Source of the DNA: a virus
Taxonomy: Duplodnaviria > Caudoviricetes
Reading direction: 5' to 3' (one strand)
IMG/VR virus record: IMGVR_UViG_3300028833_000058
Length of the DNA: 64,000 nucleotides
A program made the position numbers and the translations under genes. The notes under the pieces were generated by a model. That model did not search any database. It saw only the letters and a program-made list of their open reading frames with translations, and had not been told where the DNA came from. Of this stretch, positions 9,005 to 42,161 are shown piece by piece (position 1 is the first letter of the stretch; each line of letters opens with the position of its first letter).

Positions 9005-10591
9005 ATGTCTATATTAACAAAGAAAATTGAGAATGAAGGTTTGGCTGCTAAAGCTCGTTCTCAGAAAATCAATGCAGGTTTAGCTCATGCAGCTACTGTA
9101 TTGCACGAATCCAGCTTAGGTCGTAGATGCCCTAACTTGGTAAAAATGATTGAATCAGAAGACCGTGACGCTCGTTATCAAGCTGCTACTATGGTTCAAT
9201 TAATGGAAAACACAGCTGATTACGTTCTCAATCAAGACCACGTACAGTTATTCACAGAAGCTGACGCTTATGGTAACACTGCTTCTACTTCTGCTGTATC
9301 ATTGTTAAGTCCTGGTGTAGCCAGCTTAACTCCTCGTGTTGTCGACATAGTTAACGTCTTCTACCCAATGATGATTGCAAATTATATTGCGGATATTCAA
9401 GCACTTGACAGACAATCTGGTCAAATTTTCGTAATTAAGACTCGTTACTCTCAAGACCAAGGTGAAGGTGCTACTGAAATTAAAGCTGGTGACATCGTAT
9501 TTGAAAAACCGACTGATGGTAACTACTCTTCTGAAATGATGAGCTGGGAAGCTAAAGAAATCGGTACTGGTACAATCACTTTAGCTGCTCGTTCTGATTT
9601 AGCTGCTGACGCTACTGTTAAAATCCGTGCTGGTTCTTTCATCGTTCGTATTGAAGGTAAAGAAGTTGCTCGTGACTATGGTAACGGTGCTGCTGATACT
9701 GAAGGCAAGAACGATGGTAACTATGGCATCTTCGGTCGTGGCGTTTCTGGTCACATCAATGCTCAAGATGGTTCTGGTGAAATTGTATTCGATACAACAA
9801 TCTTTGCTAGTGCTATTGCAGACGGTGTTAAAGTATCTCTCGAAGCTGCTTATGATACAGAAACTGACGTTGATTTGATTCGTAAGATTCAATTCGATAT
9901 TCCTAACCAACCGATTTTAGCTAAAGAACACCCATTAATGAGTTCTTACTCTGTTGCTGCTGGTTTGGTAATGAACGCTCACTTAGCTATTGATACTGAT
10001 GAATTGATTGCTAACCAATTAGCTGGTACAATTCGTTGGGAAAGAGATTTAACTTTGATTAAATTGTTAAATGACAGTGCTAAGTTAAATACTTCATTAA
10101 CATTCGACTGCTCTGGTAACGGTGAAAACTTAACATTACAACAAAGATATAGCTCTTATTCTACAGTTATCTCTTCAGCTCGTGGTTTAATCCAAGAGGC
10201 TGCTGGTCGTGGTACTGTTGAATGGATGGTTGTAAGTGCTACTCAGGGTCTTCCGATTGTAGAACAAATCGAAGGCTTCAAGGCTGCTCCTGAATCTAAA
10301 AAGCCAATTGGTCCGTACTTAGCTGGTACATTACGTGATGGCACAATCAGTGTTATCGCTGTTCCTTATACAGCTACATTACCTGCTGACCAAGTAATCT
10401 TTGGTTTCAAAGGTTTCCAACTTGGTGATAGTTCTGTAGTTTTGGCTGAGTGGGTTCCGTTGTACTTCACTCCAACCTTCCAAGCTCCGAACTTGAAGAA
10501 CCATCGTGGTGCTTTATCTTTCTACGATTTGTTCTTGAACAAGCCAGAATATATGGTTAAAGGTGCTATTGCTAACTTCAACCAACAGTAA
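9005..10591 (+). CDS. major capsid protein, T4 gp23-like
   Basis: Start at ATG 9005 after AAGGA; YPMMIANYIADIQAL..SGQIF, GPYLAGTL, LAEWVPLY motifs; LFTE/A propeptide-like site; highly biased codon usage; strong terminator. Confidence 0.88.
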   Translation: MSILTKKIENEGLAAKARSQKINAGLAHAATVLHESSLGRRCPNLVKMIESEDRDARYQAATMVQLMENTADYVLNQDHVQLFTEADAYGNTASTSAVSLLSPGVASLTPRVVDIVNVFYPMMIANYIADIQALDRQSGQIFVIKTRYSQDQGEGATEIKAGDIVFEKPTDGNYSSEMMSWEAKEIGTGTITLAARSDLAADATVKIRAGSFIVRIEGKEVARDYGNGAADTEGKNDGNYGIFGRGVSGHINAQDGSGEIVFDTTIFASAIADGVKVSLEAAYDTETDVDLIRKIQFDIPNQPILAKEHPLMSSYSVAAGLVMNAHLAIDTDELIANQLAGTIRWERDLTLIKLLNDSAKLNTSLTFDCSGNGENLTLQQRYSSYSTVISSARGLIQEAAGRGTVEWMVVSATQGLPIVEQIEGFKAAPESKKPIGPYLAGTLRDGTISVIAVPYTATLPADQVIFGFKGFQLGDSSVVLAEWVPLYFTPTFQAPNLKNHRGALSFYDLFLNKPEYMVKGAIANFNQQ

Positions 10592-10622
10592 TCTGAGCTT
10601 TAGAGCTTAAAGTACTAAAAAG

Positions 10623-10657
10623 TATCCCCTGAGTTATTTCTTGGGGGATATTTTTTT
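10623..10657 (+). terminator. intrinsic terminator of capsid gene
   Basis: TATCCCCTGAG/CTTGGGGGATA stem + T7. Confidence 0.85.
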
Positions 10658-10691
10658 GCTTGACATTATTTTTTATTTGTGATAATTATAA

Positions 10692-10829
10692 GCTAACATA
10701 AATGATATGGAAAGAAGATTTGATATAAATCATATATCATGATAGGTCTCCTTTTTTTGAGTTAGTTATGTTATTTGTAGTTTTAGAGGTAGTCCTGTGT
10801 ATGTCTTTATTATACAGGACTATTTTTTT
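10692..10829 (+). ncRNA. putative small RNA 1 with anti-Shine-Dalgarno motif
   Basis: TTGACA 10660 and extended -10 TGTGATAAT (spacer only 15 nt); terminator 10790-10829; internal CATGATAGGTCTCCTT. Confidence 0.55.
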
Positions 10830-10875
10830 ATTCAATATATACGGTAAAACTTCTGAATGTTATCTTAGAGCATAC

Positions 10876-11040
10876 TTTAAGAACGAAGCTTGTGGGTTAA
10901 GCTCGCTCTTAAATATACCCTATTTATATATGAAAGTGAGAGAGAGGTACCAGACTCTCTTGAGCAGCGGACTAAACTGCTACGTAAATGGTCAAACTAA
11001 TATTGTAACTGTGAAAGGGAGTTTTCAGTACCTCTCTGCG
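10876..11040 (+). ncRNA. putative structured RNA (faint HEARO/omegaRNA resemblance)
   Basis: Several stems; AGAGAGGTAC/GTACCTCTCT long-range pair; ACCAGACT..CTACGT. Confidence 0.35.
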
Positions 11041-11089
11041 ATTCTGATGTATATATTAATATATCTTTAAAGTAAAGACATTTTTAAAA

Positions 11090-11137
11090 ATTAATTGTAA
11101 AAAAGTACTTGACAATGATTATTTATATCTGTATAAC
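11090..11137 (+). promoter_or_regulatory. early-class promoter ATTAATTGTAA-N8-TTGACA-N17-TATAAC
   Basis: Same upstream box as the early cassettes; drives a non-coding transcript. Confidence 0.8.
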
Positions 11138-11142
11138 TAAGC

Positions 11143-11236
11143 CCATAGTACATTTGGTTTAGTTGTTATTATAGTTGTTGGTGTTATTGACAGTGATGCT
11201 CATCTGATTTCCCATCCAATCAGATGAGTTTTTTTT
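11143..11236 (+). ncRNA. putative small RNA 2 (G/U-rich)
   Basis: Consensus promoter directly upstream, no ORF, terminator CTCATCTGATT/AATCAGATGAG + T run. Confidence 0.7.
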
Positions 11237-11285
11237 GTCTAAAATTGAAGGATGAAAAGTGTGTATTTCCTATTAATAGAAAACA

Positions 11286-11308
11286 CTAACTAAGTCATTG
11301 ATTTTACG
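11286..11308. repeat. 23-bp element containing IHF consensus, copy 1
   Basis: CTAACTAAGTCATTGATTTTACG; 21/23 identical to 34642-34664. Confidence 0.65.
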
Positions 11309-11379
11309 TAATTCTCAAAATTTTGTGTTTCAATCGTTTTAAGAGCTATTTTTTGTCTAAAATGGTGTTAGATAGGCAT

Positions 11380-11497
11380 AAAAAAGCTCTGATTCCCCAT
11401 TAGGCATAATCAGAGCTTCATTTGATAACTGTTGTAAAAGAAATTGCCCCGTGCGCTGAAACAAACAAGGCAATCGATATACTTAACCAGTATAACA
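11380..11497 (-). ncRNA. putative small RNA 3
   Basis: TTGACA (11531-11526)-N16-TATAAA promoter, two hairpins, terminator AAGCTCTGATT/AATCAGAGCTT + U run. Confidence 0.6.
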
Positions 11498-11561
11498 CGA
11501 ATGTTTATATCATGTTTTTTTCATTTGTCAAGTAGTTTTTCATCAATGGTGCTCATAAAAG

Positions 11562-11618
11562 TAGTTCTATATAACAGATGAATTAACTGCGCTGGTTCAT
11601 CCGAATAGTTCTTATAAG
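11562..11618 (+). promoter_or_regulatory. two putative late promoter motifs
   Basis: TAGTTCTATATAACA and TAGTTCTTATAAG. Confidence 0.6.
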
Positions 11619-11635
11619 CGTGTTTTAAATAAGGA

Positions 11636-12022
11636 ATGATTGTTATGGAAAGAATCGTTAAAGAATGTATCGCTGCTGGTATAGTAGTATCTGAAAAAGA
11701 CGAAGCAGGTAAACTCGTAAAAGAAATTGCTGCTACTGTTTATGAAGAGAAAATTATCAACGATGAATCTGCTTCTAGTTCTGCCGCTGAAGGTAAAAAA
11801 TCTGTTGTATTAAAATACAAAGATATGGCTTATGCAGAAGATATTGTTGCTCCTCTTGGCTTCGATGAAATTGCTGGTGACGCTGAATTAGTAGTTCCTG
11901 GTATCGGTGGCCATAAAGACGTTACATTAGCTGCACCTGTTGTTGTTAAATATTCAAAGACTAAATCTTTTGAACGTAATGGTAACACAGTTGTATTCGC
12001 TTCTTTACGTTATGATATGTAA
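11636..12022 (+). CDS. highly expressed late protein, possible head decoration/structural protein
   Basis: Capsid-like codon bias, late promoters, own terminator; function inferred. Confidence 0.6.
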   Translation: MIVMERIVKECIAAGIVVSEKDEAGKLVKEIAATVYEEKIINDESASSSAAEGKKSVVLKYKDMAYAEDIVAPLGFDEIAGDAELVVPGIGGHKDVTLAAPVVVKYSKTKSFERNGNTVVFASLRYDM

Positions 12023-25169: not shown

Positions 25170-25884
25170 CGGCTTTCTCCTTTTCAAATAAGTCGTCTCT
25201 AGCTTTGATGGAATAAATGGTATCAGTAAAAGCGGTTTTGATATCAAACATACTAACTTTAGTATCAAAGCCTAAATCATTTAGGTCTTTGACGATTGTA
25301 TTGTTGATAAGTTTTTCAATCTCTTTGGTAAAAAAGTTATCACCATAACACCAGCTAACTAAAGCTGAACCCTTTTGAAATCCCTTAAATTCAAAACCAT
25401 ACTTTTCAGCAAGAGCTCTAAAAGTATTGCCGAATAAACCTTCTAGAAGTTTATCCTTATTAGCAGTTCTTTGCCTCTGAAGTTCAAGGTTAGTCAACCC
25501 AGTGTCATCGTGATAATCTGATTCTTTGTAATAGGCTAAAGAATGTACAACATCTGAAAACTTACCCCAGTCAGTAAACGTTATGTCATCATCACGCCAT
25601 AAATGTTTCAAATCTCTAACCTTTTGTCCAGTAACTTTTTCAATGTTATATTCATCTGTGTTATCGTGTAAGTTATCCATACCTTCTTTACTTATACATA
25701 TTCTGTAGATATAATCAGAACAACCTCTGCGTGAATATCTAAACAAATCATTTCTTTTAGTTGAAGTTTTTACTAAACCACCCCAAGCGAAATACCCAAA
25801 GTGTGGATACTTATATCTATAGAGCCTTATACCTTTAATGTCAAATATCAGTTCAGGCTCAATGTTCTGTATCGTTACTTTCAT
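25138..25884 (-). CDS. paralogue family A member 3
   Basis: IEPELIFDIKGIRLYRYK..LFGNTFRALAEKYG. Confidence 0.8.
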   Translation of the reverse strand: MKVTIQNIEPELIFDIKGIRLYRYKYPHFGYFAWGGLVKTSTKRNDLFRYSRRGCSDYIYRICISKEGMDNLHDNTDEYNIEKVTGQKVRDLKHLWRDDDITFTDWGKFSDVVHSLAYYKESDYHDDTGLTNLELQRQRTANKDKLLEGLFGNTFRALAEKYGFEFKGFQKGSALVSWCYGDNFFTKEIEKLINNTIVKDLNDLGFDTKVSMFDIKTAFTDTIYSIKARDDLFEKEKADESNTKRGEN

Positions 25885-26062
25885 TAGCTTTCTCCTTCTG
25901 CTCTTTAATATATTTCACTAAAGCCAATACGCTTTCGTGAAGGTTCTTATTGAGTTCAGCTTGTTCAAGAAGTTGTTTTTTAGTTTCAAGCATATAATCT
26001 TCAAACTGTTTTTCAATTTTCTTGATTTTGTCCAACAATCTCAATTCATTTGTGCTTAACAT
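25859..26062 (-). CDS. small coiled-coil protein
   Basis: AGGAG RBS. Confidence 0.65.
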   Translation of the reverse strand: MLSTNELRLLDKIKKIEKQFEDYMLETKKQLLEQAELNKNLHESVLALVKYIKEQKEKANESNDTEH

Positions 26063-33006: not shown

Positions 33007-33450
33007 TTAGTTAGCTTGAGCTTTGTTAATCATAGCTCTTACTTTTGCTCTGACTTCTTCTTTCATTGAGTCAATAGCGTCAAGTAAAGCTAATCCTTCT
33101 TCAAGCCGTTTCTTAAAATTAACGGCATATTCATCATCAGCTTTGATATTGACAGTATGAACGGTGCTAACCTTTGAGCATCTTTCAATTACTTCTTTAC
33201 CAACAATGCTTTCAAGCATTTTCTTATCAAGATTAACTCTTTCAGAGTCAATCACTTGGATTTCACCAATACCGTCAACTCTATAAGGCTCGTGAACATT
33301 ACCTTTGCTGTCTTGACCTACAACTGTCGTTTCCAGTTCATCGGTCTTAACTTTATCTTTTACAGCTTTCAAATTATCTGCTGTGATTTTTGCCATAAGC
33401 TGTGCGTCAACTAATGCACAAACTTCTGCTCTTGTTAATTTACTTTTCAT
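33007..33450 (-). CDS. hypothetical early protein
   Basis: First gene after promoter cassette; hairpin downstream. Confidence 0.75.
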   Translation of the reverse strand: MKSKLTRAEVCALVDAQLMAKITADNLKAVKDKVKTDELETTVVGQDSKGNVHEPYRVDGIGEIQVIDSERVNLDKKMLESIVGKEVIERCSKVSTVHTVNIKADDEYAVNFKKRLEEGLALLDAIDSMKEEVRAKVRAMINKAQAN

Positions 33451-33497
33451 AGCTCTATCCTTTCATAGTAAATTACAGTTTAACGGAAAGCATAATA

Positions 33498-33546
33498 ATT
33501 ATACACGTTTATCATCTTTTAGGCAAGTGAGATTCTTACAATTAAT
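33498..33546 (-). promoter_or_regulatory. early promoter cassette
   Basis: ATTAATTGTAA-N9-TTGCCT-N17-TATAAT. Confidence 0.8.
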
Positions 33547-33588
33547 GTAATACCATTTGTCTAAAAGCTGTGTTCATAGATTAAGAGT

Positions 33589-33632
33589 GTTGCTCTTAAC
33601 CCCCACCCCCCTCTAAAAGCGTTGCTCTTAAC
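33589..33632. repeat. 12-bp direct repeat GTTGCTCTTAAC flanking a C-run
   Basis: Copies at 33589-33600 and 33621-33632. Confidence 0.7.
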
Positions 33633-33658
33633 AAGGGGTATGGTATCCCCCCTATGCT

Positions 33659-33865
33659 TTACCAGTTTGAGCAAAGCATAGAAGTAATTTCATATTGACT
33701 TTTACCATTAAATGAGTTCAGCCATACCTCGCTGTTCTCTCTCAGTTCTCCCTCGTATCTCTTGTCCAAAATTGGTGTATATGAGATAGGTTTAGTATAT
33801 TCTTTTTTAGCTAGTTCAATCTTGCGGATTCTTTCAGCGTTTGATTTTAAAGTTTGTTTTACCAT
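33659..33865 (-). CDS. hypothetical protein
   Basis: GGAGG RBS. Confidence 0.7.
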   Translation of the reverse strand: MVKQTLKSNAERIRKIELAKKEYTKPISYTPILDKRYEGELRENSEVWLNSFNGKSQYEITSMLCSNW

Positions 33866-33967
33866 AATAGACCTCCAAAGTATTTTATATGTTAAAGTGG
33901 TTAATAAAAAGTTAATTGTTTATATTTCGGTTGATTTCAGTTAGCTTGTCTTATTGTCAATATATCC

Positions 33968-34371
33968 AAAAAAATCGGTAAAGCTAAACTAGACTAACTT
34001 TACCGACTAACTGGACTTATGACTTGACTTAAACCGAAAACATTAAAAGTCCGAAAAATAAATCATATAAACACTAAATACAAGTTAAGACTTAATGCTT
34101 ATATGATTTATTCGGTTATAAAGATTTTGAGATGATTTAGCTTTATTCGTTTTTTTTTATCTAGTGAGTCCGTTTGTTTTTTCTTTTTGTGGTATGATTC
34201 GGGGATTCGGTTTATTCGGTATTATAAAAAAAGATTCGGCGGTTTGTATAACATTAAATAAAAAACATTAATGAAAACTTTACCGCCGAATCTACATAAA
34301 AACTTATAAGAAAAAAAGCAAGCCAAAAAACACACGCCGAATCAAATCGGAGTCCGCTTGCTTGCTTTTTT
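33968..34371 (-). repeat. four consecutive large-loop hairpins, each followed by a U-tract on the minus strand
   Basis: Stems TCGGTAAAG, AATAAATCATATAA, AGATTCGGCGGT, AAAAAAGCAAGC with their reverse complements. Confidence 0.75.
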
Positions 34372-34405
34372 AAGGTTAGGTTGTTGTCCGCCTGTTTATG
34401 TATTA

Positions 34406-34453
34406 ATAGTATCATAAAAAACGATAAAAAGCAAATACATTTTTACAATTAAT
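34406..34453 (-). promoter_or_regulatory. early promoter cassette (outermost)
   Basis: ATTAATTGTAA-N8-TTGCTT-N17-TACTAT. Confidence 0.7.
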
Positions 34454-34641
34454 TTAGGGTATGGGGGGTGCCCTCCCCCCCTTGCCAGCCCTTTACACGC
34501 GAGGGAAGAATCGGCACACTCTGACCGAGTAGGAGCTTTTGCCGTCCCATTTGTTCCGTCATATCCCATTCCCCCTATTTTTTTGTCTATTCTGTTCGGT
34601 ATCTTTTGGTATTTTGCTCCCGAAGAAAACAACACCATGCT

Positions 34642-40927: not shown

Positions 40928-41434
40928 CTACTTTTCCAATATCTCAAAGAACAATCTACCATCTGTTAATTGACTGTGAACAAACCAAGATGTATTAAAC
41001 CAGCAACTTCCTTTACTATTAAAATCACATCTTTTATCCAAAGCAATTAGACCAATACCATTTTTAAACAACTTGTGTCTCTTGGTTCCCTCAAGTGCAG
41101 TCATAGGAAGTAATAAGGCAAATGGTTTTTTCAATTCATAACACCTTTTTATAATATCGTCCTTCAAGCTGTAGGGCGGGTTCGTAACAATCATGTCATA
41201 TCCTTCTGGTTCGCATTTGAAGAAATCTTTACCTTCGTCTTTATGACTGTAAATAATGTCGTAACCAAAAGAAAGTAGTTCTTGAACAATGTTACTTTCT
41301 AATGTATCACAAGGACACCATACAGTTTTGACGTTATTTGGAATGTAATTTAAAAGTGGTTTGATAGCATAAGCTGGTGTATAGAGCTCATCGAACGCTC
41401 CTCTTTTAATGTAATCAAGCATTGCCTTTTTCAT
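40928..41434 (-). CDS. phage DNA amino-methyltransferase (NPPY)
   Basis: DELYTP, VWCPCD, GKDFF, IVTNPPYS, FALLLP. Confidence 0.8.
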   Translation of the reverse strand: MKKAMLDYIKRGAFDELYTPAYAIKPLLNYIPNNVKTVWCPCDTLESNIVQELLSFGYDIIYSHKDEGKDFFKCEPEGYDMIVTNPPYSLKDDIIKRCYELKKPFALLLPMTALEGTKRHKLFKNGIGLIALDKRCDFNSKGSCWFNTSWFVHSQLTDGRLFFEILEK

Positions 41435-42161
41435 TTATCCTATCCTCCGCTATATTAAAATAAGTTTCATTAAGTTCAATACCAATAAAATCTCTATTTA
41501 ATTTTTTACAAGCAACACCAGTAGTTCCGCTCCCCATTGTGAAATCAAGCACTATGTCTCCTTCATCGGTATAGGTCTTTACCAAATATTCCATTAGTTC
41601 CAATGGTTTCTGTGTTGGATGTAAATTACTTGTTAGAATATCTCTTTTAAATTGAATAACTTGTAGTGGATAACGTAAACCGTTATCTTTATATTGGTTC
41701 GGTTGCTTATTTCCAGAATCCACTAATAAACCTAATTTACCATTTTTAATTTTATTGGTTCTCAATGGTCCATCATGTTTAATCATCTGTGGATTATAGG
41801 TTGGTTGTTTGTCATAGAACACACAAATGTTTTCAATGACTTTTGCTGGTCTTTTCTTTAACTGAAATATATTTGTAGCTCTTTCTTTCTGCCAATACCA
41901 GTCATATTTATAGGCAGTCAAATTACTTTCTCTTAGAGCAGATGAAAACGGTTCGTTGCCAAAAAGACATACAACAGCGTCATCTTTTTTAATTCTGTTT
42001 ATGCAATCCCACATTGGTACAAACGGTATAGCTTTATCCCATGAACATCTTGTAATTTCGTAAGGTATATCTGTGATAACGGCATCGACTTTAATCCCAT
42101 CTCCAATGAGAGTATTCATCACTTCTATACAATCACCATTGTAAAGCTGAATATTACTCAT
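41415..42161 (-). CDS. site-specific DNA methyltransferase (N6/N4, beta class)
   Basis: LYNGDC, ITDIPY, HPTQKP, VLDFTMGSGTTG, FIGIE. Confidence 0.9.
   Translation of the reverse strand: MSNIQLYNGDCIEVMNTLIGDGIKVDAVITDIPYEITRCSWDKAIPFVPMWDCINRIKKDDAVVCLFGNEPFSSALRESNLTAYKYDWYWQKERATNIFQLKKRPAKVIENICVFYDKQPTYNPQMIKHDGPLRTNKIKNGKLGLLVDSGNKQPNQYKDNGLRYPLQVIQFKRDILTSNLHPTQKPLELMEYLVKTYTDEGDIVLDFTMGSGTTGVACKKLNRDFIGIELNETYFNIAEDRINEKGNA

Follow-up and report, generated by a model that had tools for sequence, protein, structure and literature searches.

An accessory island of candidate small RNA genes behind the major capsid gene of an uncultured T4-like phage lineage

Based on the analysis of a 64 kb stretch of phage DNA (the window) and on comparison with its relatives, we propose that the gap behind the major capsid gene is an accessory island of four small non-coding units, two on the plus strand (units 1 and 2) and two on the minus strand (units 3 and C), whose products are most likely short early RNAs, a reading that we hold with moderate confidence. 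Units 1, 2 and 3 each consist of a host-type -35/-10 promoter and an intrinsic terminator, and no conserved ORF was found in any of the four; the units are probably phage small RNAs. We infer transcription and every function from features of the DNA, and the early timing from promoter type only. The island is real, accessory and restricted to the clade; it lies in a recombination hotspot, and its units, which are candidate phage sRNA genes, are gained, lost, duplicated and swapped as cassettes among relatives. An initial inspection of the window without database searches (the sequence-only reading) had described a dedicated sRNA array at this position; the ORF-free units with kept promoters and terminators (units 2 and 3) agree with that description, whereas the cassette turnover in relatives speaks against a fixed array.

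The window belongs to a viral record of 148 kb with an estimated completeness of 62%; relatives near completion measure 227-237 kb, and the related contigs come from metagenome collections. The major head protein gene (9005-10591) matches phrog_138, and a homologue of its product matches Pfam Gp23; given this Gp23-type capsid, the phage is T4-like. The lineage is an uncultured T4-like giant phage, of gut or rumen origin by our reading, and the host, judged from the promoter and Shine-Dalgarno types, is probably a Firmicute. Downstream of the gap lies a gene encoding 125 aa (11645-12022), for which family scans gave no match. A 12-base late-type motif is common to the upstream regions of the 125-aa gene, the capsid gene and gene 4546; since the capsid gene and the 125-aa gene are preceded by the same late-type motif, the 1.05 kb gap is placed between two late genes. 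Rightward of the gap there is a long minus-strand block of small genes, with nine promoters carrying the 11-base box described below. The capsid gene is followed by a bidirectional terminator (10615-10658, both strands), whose stem is preceded by an A run and followed by a T run; it was called on both strands, has a fold z of -6.2 and is conserved in relatives.

The three promoter/terminator units that had been claimed for the gap were all recovered where the sequence-only reading had put them, as units 1, 2 and 3. A terminator scan of the 64 kb window called ~10 strong compact terminators, four of which lie within 10623-11416. The gap also holds three of the 23 TTGAC[AT]-type promoter-like sites, including two of the best four, and when the whole 148 kb record was searched for promoter-to-terminator units without an ORF of at least 30 aa, three of the five that emerged were units 1-3. 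Unit 2 carries the 11-base box of early-type genes, which bears out the claim that one unit uses an early promoter box; it lies at 11090-11100 on the plus strand, in the UP-element position, and is conserved in relatives. The box is present in 10 exact copies against 0.29 expected, and every copy lies 8-9 bases upstream of a -35 hexamer. Given this enrichment of terminators, promoters, orphan units and box copies, the units are not a chance product of A+T-rich DNA. Like phage intergenic sRNAs, they have promoters of their own, with consensus-like hexamers that keep their places while the spacers vary; a terminator follows within ~250 nt of the start in units 1, 2 and 3, though not in unit C; and the sequence shows no credible translated ORF in any of them, a 15-codon frame described below being a possible exception.

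The reported absence of a credible ORF was upheld, as the candidate frames are broken in close relatives and searches for protein homologues of the gap frames found none. In most relatives a 2-base deletion, for example, disrupts the 100-aa plus-strand frame at 10768-11070. Two very small frames were considered separately, on the reading that one or more units encode very small proteins. The first, a 15-codon frame antisense to unit 1 (10740-10693, minus strand), has a strong ribosome-binding site, the single case of a six-base Shine-Dalgarno match before a start codon in the gap; the site and its spacing match those of real genes of the phage, and its 9-base core is common to two of them. Against this, there is no convincing minus-strand promoter directly upstream of the frame, and unit 1', a paralogue of unit 1 in relatives, keeps the same motif without a start codon behind it. 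The second, a 26-codon frame of unit 3, is hydrophobic, as would suit a type I toxin; its GTG start falls at the predicted transcript start without a ribosome-binding site, and in the 97%-identical relative L091 a stop interrupts it at codon 4, so that a type I toxin-antitoxin locus was rejected. No homologue was found for the 15-codon peptide or for the 26-codon peptide. With the frames broken in relatives, small-protein readings of the gap were set aside, and we regard it as highly unlikely that any unit encodes a peptide.

Comparison with known RNA families, which the sequence-only reading had proposed as a check, brought no family match in the window. Rfam covariance models gave nothing at gathering score, the hits with E up to 10 being chance-level and far below threshold, and classes including HEARO/omegaRNA, CRISPR repeats and riboswitches were likewise without a match in the window, where ARAGORN predicted no tRNA or tmRNA. 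A HEARO-like identity of the middle segment was therefore rejected, as there was no Rfam match and no IscB/TnpB gene nearby in the ORF list or in a PHROGs scan of the neighbouring ORFs. Public phage records contained no DNA match, and exact-word scans of viral contigs with two RNA pieces were empty.

Closer relatives were obtained by a protein search with the 125-aa gene, and their contigs align to the gap at 78-97% identity. Synteny downstream of the capsid gene, the other comparison that had been proposed, was thus found in part: units recur, in varying sets, behind the capsid gene in these 78-97% relatives, while in distant relatives (capsid 55-73% identical) blastn detected no similarity to the gap and blastx no remnants of their ORFs in it. 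The distant relatives differ in what lies behind the capsid gene, and among them the 125-aa gene has homologues in both orientations. The variable plus-strand ORFs found behind the capsid gene of relatives are mostly homing-endonuclease-like, with NUMOD3 above its Pfam cut-off and GIY-YIG/SegE and NinG just below theirs, and one ORF carries DUF7487, a domain of unknown function; a search of the present gap for an endonuclease ORF (GIY-YIG, HNH, NUMOD or similar) found none. In L086-L090, the cassette slot, which extends from the capsid terminator to unit C, is occupied by NUMOD3 genes, by unrelated DNA or, in L086, by the decayed remains of an endonuclease-like gene together with a further small unit on the minus strand, B. 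The left edge of hairpin 2 of unit C coincides exactly with the breakpoints of cassette insertions. T4-like phages have insertion sites for free-standing homing-endonuclease genes, the seg and mob genes. The present locus is alike in that the endonuclease-like genes of relatives come and go beside a conserved structural gene, here a Gp23-type capsid gene; it differs in that this window contains at most ~8 vestigial endonuclease codons and in that the small units persist with or without an endonuclease.

The turnover leads to the main rival of the small RNA reading: the promoters and terminators would have arrived with homing-endonuclease or other mobile cassettes and would persist as leftovers and insulators that keep stray or convergent transcription out of the late genes, and any RNAs would be by-products without function. 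This is a possible explanation, although we consider it rather unlikely. It draws on the content of the relatives' slot after the capsid terminator (NUMOD3, GIY-YIG, weak sub-threshold NinG and DUF7487 genes), on the decayed pieces of such a gene in L086, on the presence and absence of units among near-identical phages, on the match between the 5' end of unit 1 and the start of a 602-aa gene, promoter included, in L077 and L057, and on the fact that units 2 and 3 keep their promoters and terminators but not their bodies. The turnover and the poor conservation of the bodies are thereby explained well. Less well explained are the motif, unit C and the loops: unit 1' keeps an internal motif besides its promoter and terminator, hairpin 2 and parts of unit C exceed synonymous-site conservation, and terminator loops stay nearly constant while their stems change. 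In addition, four strong early-type promoters running into terminators within 1 kb would be costly for debris. Purifying selection is indicated by the conservation, among the relatives, of the promoter core, the terminators and hairpin 2 of unit C, which exceeds that of third codon positions in the neighbouring gene.

Unit 1 (10660-10829, plus strand) has its -35 hexamer at 10660-10665, a predicted RNA at ~10692-10829 and a terminator stem at 10790-10822 followed by a T run; its fold z is -4.3. It sits in the variable cassette slot and is present in L091, L093, L082, L081 and L080 and absent from L086-L090. Its promoter and first bases match the promoter and start-codon region of the 602-aa DUF7487 gene of L077 and L057 (67% over 120 bases, 73% over 48 bases), and a vestigial 8-codon frame at 10702-10728 on the plus strand resembles the start of that gene; beyond the first 7-8 codons, no further remnant of it was found in the window. 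The 5' end of unit 1 has the look of a leftover from an endonuclease gene that was lost. Unit 1' follows as a tandem paralogue in L082 and L080, with the same promoter, the same type of terminator and the same CU-rich motif, and has no start codon behind the motif on the opposite strand.

The CU-rich motif, which resembles an anti-Shine-Dalgarno sequence, lies at 10745-10759 on the plus strand of unit 1 and is conserved in relatives as well as in unit 1'. It can be read in two ways, either as a plus-strand anti-Shine-Dalgarno seed or as the ribosome-binding site of the minus-strand 15-codon frame, and nearly all copies of the CU-rich word in the window complement ribosome-binding sites of minus-strand genes. 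As regards the strand, two substitutions in L082 leave the plus-strand stem of unit 1 paired, and by our reading four G-U pairs of the stem would be mismatches on the minus strand. When the body of unit 1 was compared with 177 translation-start regions of the record, its predicted pairing was better than that of shuffled sequences (z -4.8 over the ten best and -5.2 for the mean), and a contiguous 16-pair duplex with one G-U was predicted over the ribosome-binding site of a gene for 244 aa that lies beyond the window (record 41144-41878, minus strand) and whose product resembles, by eye, a ClpP-type protease. The same comparison gave no excess pairing with phage translation starts over shuffles for units 2, 3 and C. 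RsaE/RoxS are C/U-rich anti-Shine-Dalgarno sRNAs of Firmicutes. Unit 1 is similar in that its CU-rich stretch complements the local Shine-Dalgarno consensus and shows an excess of predicted pairing; it differs in being phage-borne, in having no Rfam match and in that its motif is predicted to be paired in the minimum-energy fold and not loop-exposed.

The stem-rich segment that had been noticed between units 1 and 2 is present as described; instead of a passive spacer, it is most likely a fourth unit, C, which has a conserved promoter on the minus strand, an assignment that we make with moderate confidence. Unit C (11076-10866, minus strand) has a -35 hexamer at 11076-11071 and a -10 hexamer at 11053-11048, followed by a long, branched hairpin (11046-10930) and by hairpin 2 (10925-10866). 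For the middle segment the fold z is -3.1 (plus strand) or -4.4 (minus strand). In the promoter, the -35 is conserved and the 17-base spacer varies freely among relatives; the -10 is conserved yet atypical, without the usual final T. The promoter is homologous to one in L076 and L024. A search for an intrinsic terminator of unit C found none, and the transcript may run on antisense to unit 1, up to the two-way capsid terminator.

Comparison among relatives points to the minus strand as well. When the helices of unit C were scored across relatives, 435 of 455 cells were paired if read on the minus strand, compared with 388 of 455 on the plus strand, a comparison biased by the fact that the helices were taken from the minus-strand prediction. 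About 11 substitutions in unit C are G-U on the minus strand and A-C on the plus strand; ~6 favour the opposite strand, four of them in a rearranged outer stem of L090. Unit C includes some of the best-conserved sequence of the gap: hairpin 2, with 85-100% identity among relatives, exceeds synonymous sites. In the long hairpin several stretches are invariant, while over its whole length the identity of 70-95% is no better than that of third codon positions (74-98%). The consensus folds of unit C show conservation at the sequence level and little covariation, and a covariance model of the long hairpin gave no match outside the close clade. A 7-base CU-rich motif found here in unit C recurs in many distant relatives downstream of the capsid gene, there on the minus strand and often in large hairpin loops. 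We nonetheless do not claim an RNA family common to the distant relatives, as the covariance model is confined to the clade and unit C has no excess pairing.

Unit 2 (11109-11237, plus strand) consists of a -35 hexamer at 11109-11114, a 17-base spacer, a -10 hexamer at 11132-11137 and a predicted RNA at ~11143-11237, with a terminator stem at 11199-11228 followed by 8 T. The 5' part of its body is G/U-rich and largely unpaired (fold z -2.0). Unit 3 (11531-11380, minus strand) has its -35 at 11531-11526, its -10 at 11509-11504 and a predicted RNA at ~11497-11380, which contains an inner hairpin (11473-11444) with a short U run after it and a terminator (11416-11386) consisting of a stem and a T run; its fold z is -5.0. 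The hexamers of both promoters keep their places in the 78-97% relatives, while the spacer of unit 2 varies in sequence and that of unit 3 in length. Both terminators show the same pattern of conservation: in each, two stem pairs are altered on both sides with pairing retained, and the loop is nearly constant across relatives, a single base varying in three of eight in the case of unit 2. For unit 3, 92% of cells are paired, compared with at most 57% when the partners are slid; covariation is weak, and with n = 7 sequences the shuffle controls of this comparison were not significant.

The bodies of units 2 and 3 behave differently from their terminators. The body of unit 2 is 29-33% identical in L086 and L087, and in one subclade it is replaced outright. 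That of unit 3 is 50-64% identical in L086, L087 and L090; in the same phages the neighbouring gene has 74-89% identity at third codon positions; unit 3 is replaced as a whole in L080 and L081, and in L076, L024 and L077 its promoter and terminator are recognisable around an unrelated body. Both bodies fall below synonymous sites in conservation. This speaks against a conserved seed, which a trans-acting RNA would normally have. By our reading, the two terminators have a 13-base repeat in common on the plus strand. Kissing-loop or antisense pairing of units 2 and 3 was rejected, since despite this repeat the duplex energy was no better than that of shuffles.

Between the convergent terminators of units 2 and 3 lies a conserved non-coding block (11238-11379). 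It is 92-95% identical to L086 and L087, exceeding synonymous sites, and its core is present even in the distant L076, L024 and L077. An 8-base palindrome lies within it at 11304-11311, and a direct repeat of 15 bases has its copies at 11231-11245 and 11352-11366; the block may be a protein-binding site. It is conceivable that unit C and this block, the most conserved parts of the gap, act as DNA and not as RNA, either as binding sites for a phage regulator or as a recombination or homing target, with the hairpins being inverted repeats only. The palindrome and the direct repeat would fit such a role, as would the sequence-level conservation with little covariation in unit C and the cassette breakpoints at the edge of hairpin 2. 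An 8-base motif of hairpin 2 points in the same direction; it occurs in 6 copies against 2 expected, four of them adjoining promoters in the two ORF-free regions, this gap and a second one, and it recurs in distant relatives. What a DNA-level role does not account for is the promoter with conserved hexamers that points into unit C, or the substitutions that favour minus-strand G-U pairs, which are relevant to RNA only. We consider this explanation quite improbable.

Returning to the small RNA reading, we propose that host RNA polymerase would fire the four promoters early in infection and halt at the terminators. Unit 1 would probably act through its CU-rich motif, pairing with ribosome-binding sites and blocking translation. 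Unit C would yield a structured RNA of ~180 nt or more, whereas units 2 and 3 would yield short terminator-bearing RNAs that may act by fast-changing pairing regions, by their conserved terminator loops, or not at all. In relatives the hotspot slot also takes free-standing homing-endonuclease genes, and the units are exchanged there as cassettes. A more far-reaching and, in our estimation, unlikely possibility is that the island is the RNA counterpart of the protein islands for anti-defence and host takeover, with conserved promoter/terminator shells and with bodies exchanged in an arms race. RNAs of the unit 1 type would then mimic the anti-Shine-Dalgarno tail of 16S rRNA and silence chosen messages, such as the ClpP-like late gene or host mRNAs, and the loop-conserved terminators would serve as docking sites for protein or RNA.

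The cataloguing of small RNAs from lytic phages has only begun, and for hardly any of them is a function known. Intergenic sRNAs of the Pseudomonas phages 201phi2-1, phiKZ and PAK_P3 were mapped by ONT-cappable-seq, with a start site closely before a terminator; their function is unknown, and some are positionally conserved among relatives (PMC11512511). The present units are similar in being short intergenic units of a large lytic phage. They differ in that they are predicted from sequence only and not derived from RNA data, in that several are found in one 1 kb hotspot between late genes with cassette turnover, and in that no sequence or Rfam relation connects them to the Pseudomonas phage sRNAs. 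[quoted passage not shown] Here too, the predicted non-coding RNAs would lie between genes of a large lytic phage, whose host is probably a Firmicute; they are not similar in sequence to those of phage K, and the phages differ in family and host.

The locus is a new, sequence-unrelated example of a documented kind, the short ORF-free intergenic transcription units of phages, and nothing categorically new. What sets it apart is that several units are packed between two late genes, that they turn over like cassettes next to homing-endonuclease genes, and that conserved shells enclose variable bodies. Comparison alone shows a lineage keeping several orphan promoter-to-terminator units in one hotspot and indicates which parts are under selection, namely the promoters, the terminator hairpins and loops, and unit C, and not the bodies of units 2 and 3. 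Endonuclease-driven hotspots may in this way spread RNA cassettes. We regard the result as moderately interesting rather than surprising. Immediately right of the island and outside it, the region before the 125-aa gene (11563-11644, plus strand) contains the late-type promoter motif and a conserved hairpin; it is 93-100% identical among relatives, and the stem of the hairpin covaries.

Among the non-coding DNA behind the capsid gene, the stretch at window 11563-11644 is conserved best, with an identity of 93-100%; it lies ahead of the late gene encoding a 125-aa protein. It contains a 12-base late-type motif, which also precedes the capsid gene and gene 4546, and a hairpin at ~11576-11603. 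Contigs of related phages (L081, L090, L076, L024 and L077) show covariation in the stem of this hairpin; the loop is nearly fixed in the same relatives, with two bases differing in L077. For the gene of the 125-aa protein, this stretch is probably the late promoter combined with a 5' leader element.

Relatives have an additional small promoter-to-terminator unit, unit B, which the window lacks. It is well conserved among phages with 72-86% identity to the window in the 125-aa protein. Unit B is located on the minus strand at L076:985-1085, L024:3215-3320, L077:2468-2560 and L086:2135-2250, and the loops of its terminator and of the unit 3 homologue are complementary, unit 3 being one of the ORF-free units behind the capsid gene. 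Small minus-strand units were also found in more distant relatives (L039, L054, L072, L051 and L046), 120-760 nt downstream of the capsid genes. These have stems of 7-12 bp that differ in sequence from one another, and loops of 24-26 nt composed almost exclusively of C and U, in which several anti-Shine-Dalgarno-like words occur; the first hairpin is followed by another CU-loop hairpin of the same kind in L039 and L054. The CU-loop units look like a separate sRNA family.

The slot after the capsid gene is a hotspot of free-standing homing-endonuclease-like genes. Such genes lie directly 3' of the capsid genes in L003, L004, L006, L010, L012, L013, L077, L087 and L088, at least four types occupy the slot (NUMOD3, GIY-YIG/SegE-like, a weak NinG match and DUF7487), and in L086 one such gene is present there as decayed fragments.

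Unit 1 is complementary, over 16 contiguous pairs, to the ribosome-binding site of a 244-aa gene outside the window (minus strand, 41144-41878 of the full virus record), the product of which by eye resembles a ClpP-type protease. This site has a 9-base core in common with window gene 25859-26062. A late-type motif is present upstream of the 244-aa gene.

The second ORF-free region of the window (33450-34460, minus strand) contains three strong terminators (33975-34006, 34063-34106 and 34318-34365) and two early-type box promoters (33546 and 34453), and had no match in Rfam. It could be a replication origin or a further set of non-coding units. Gene orientation changes at this region, which also holds repeated CCGAAT-type 6-base words and G/C-rich hairpins.

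The 8-base word TTAAGAGC or its complement occurs in six exact copies against two expected, four of them within the two ORF-free regions; together with near copies, it is found at window 10867-10912, 11339-11346 and 33592-33631. The word may be a regulator binding site. Among the relatives, it is also found near promoters.
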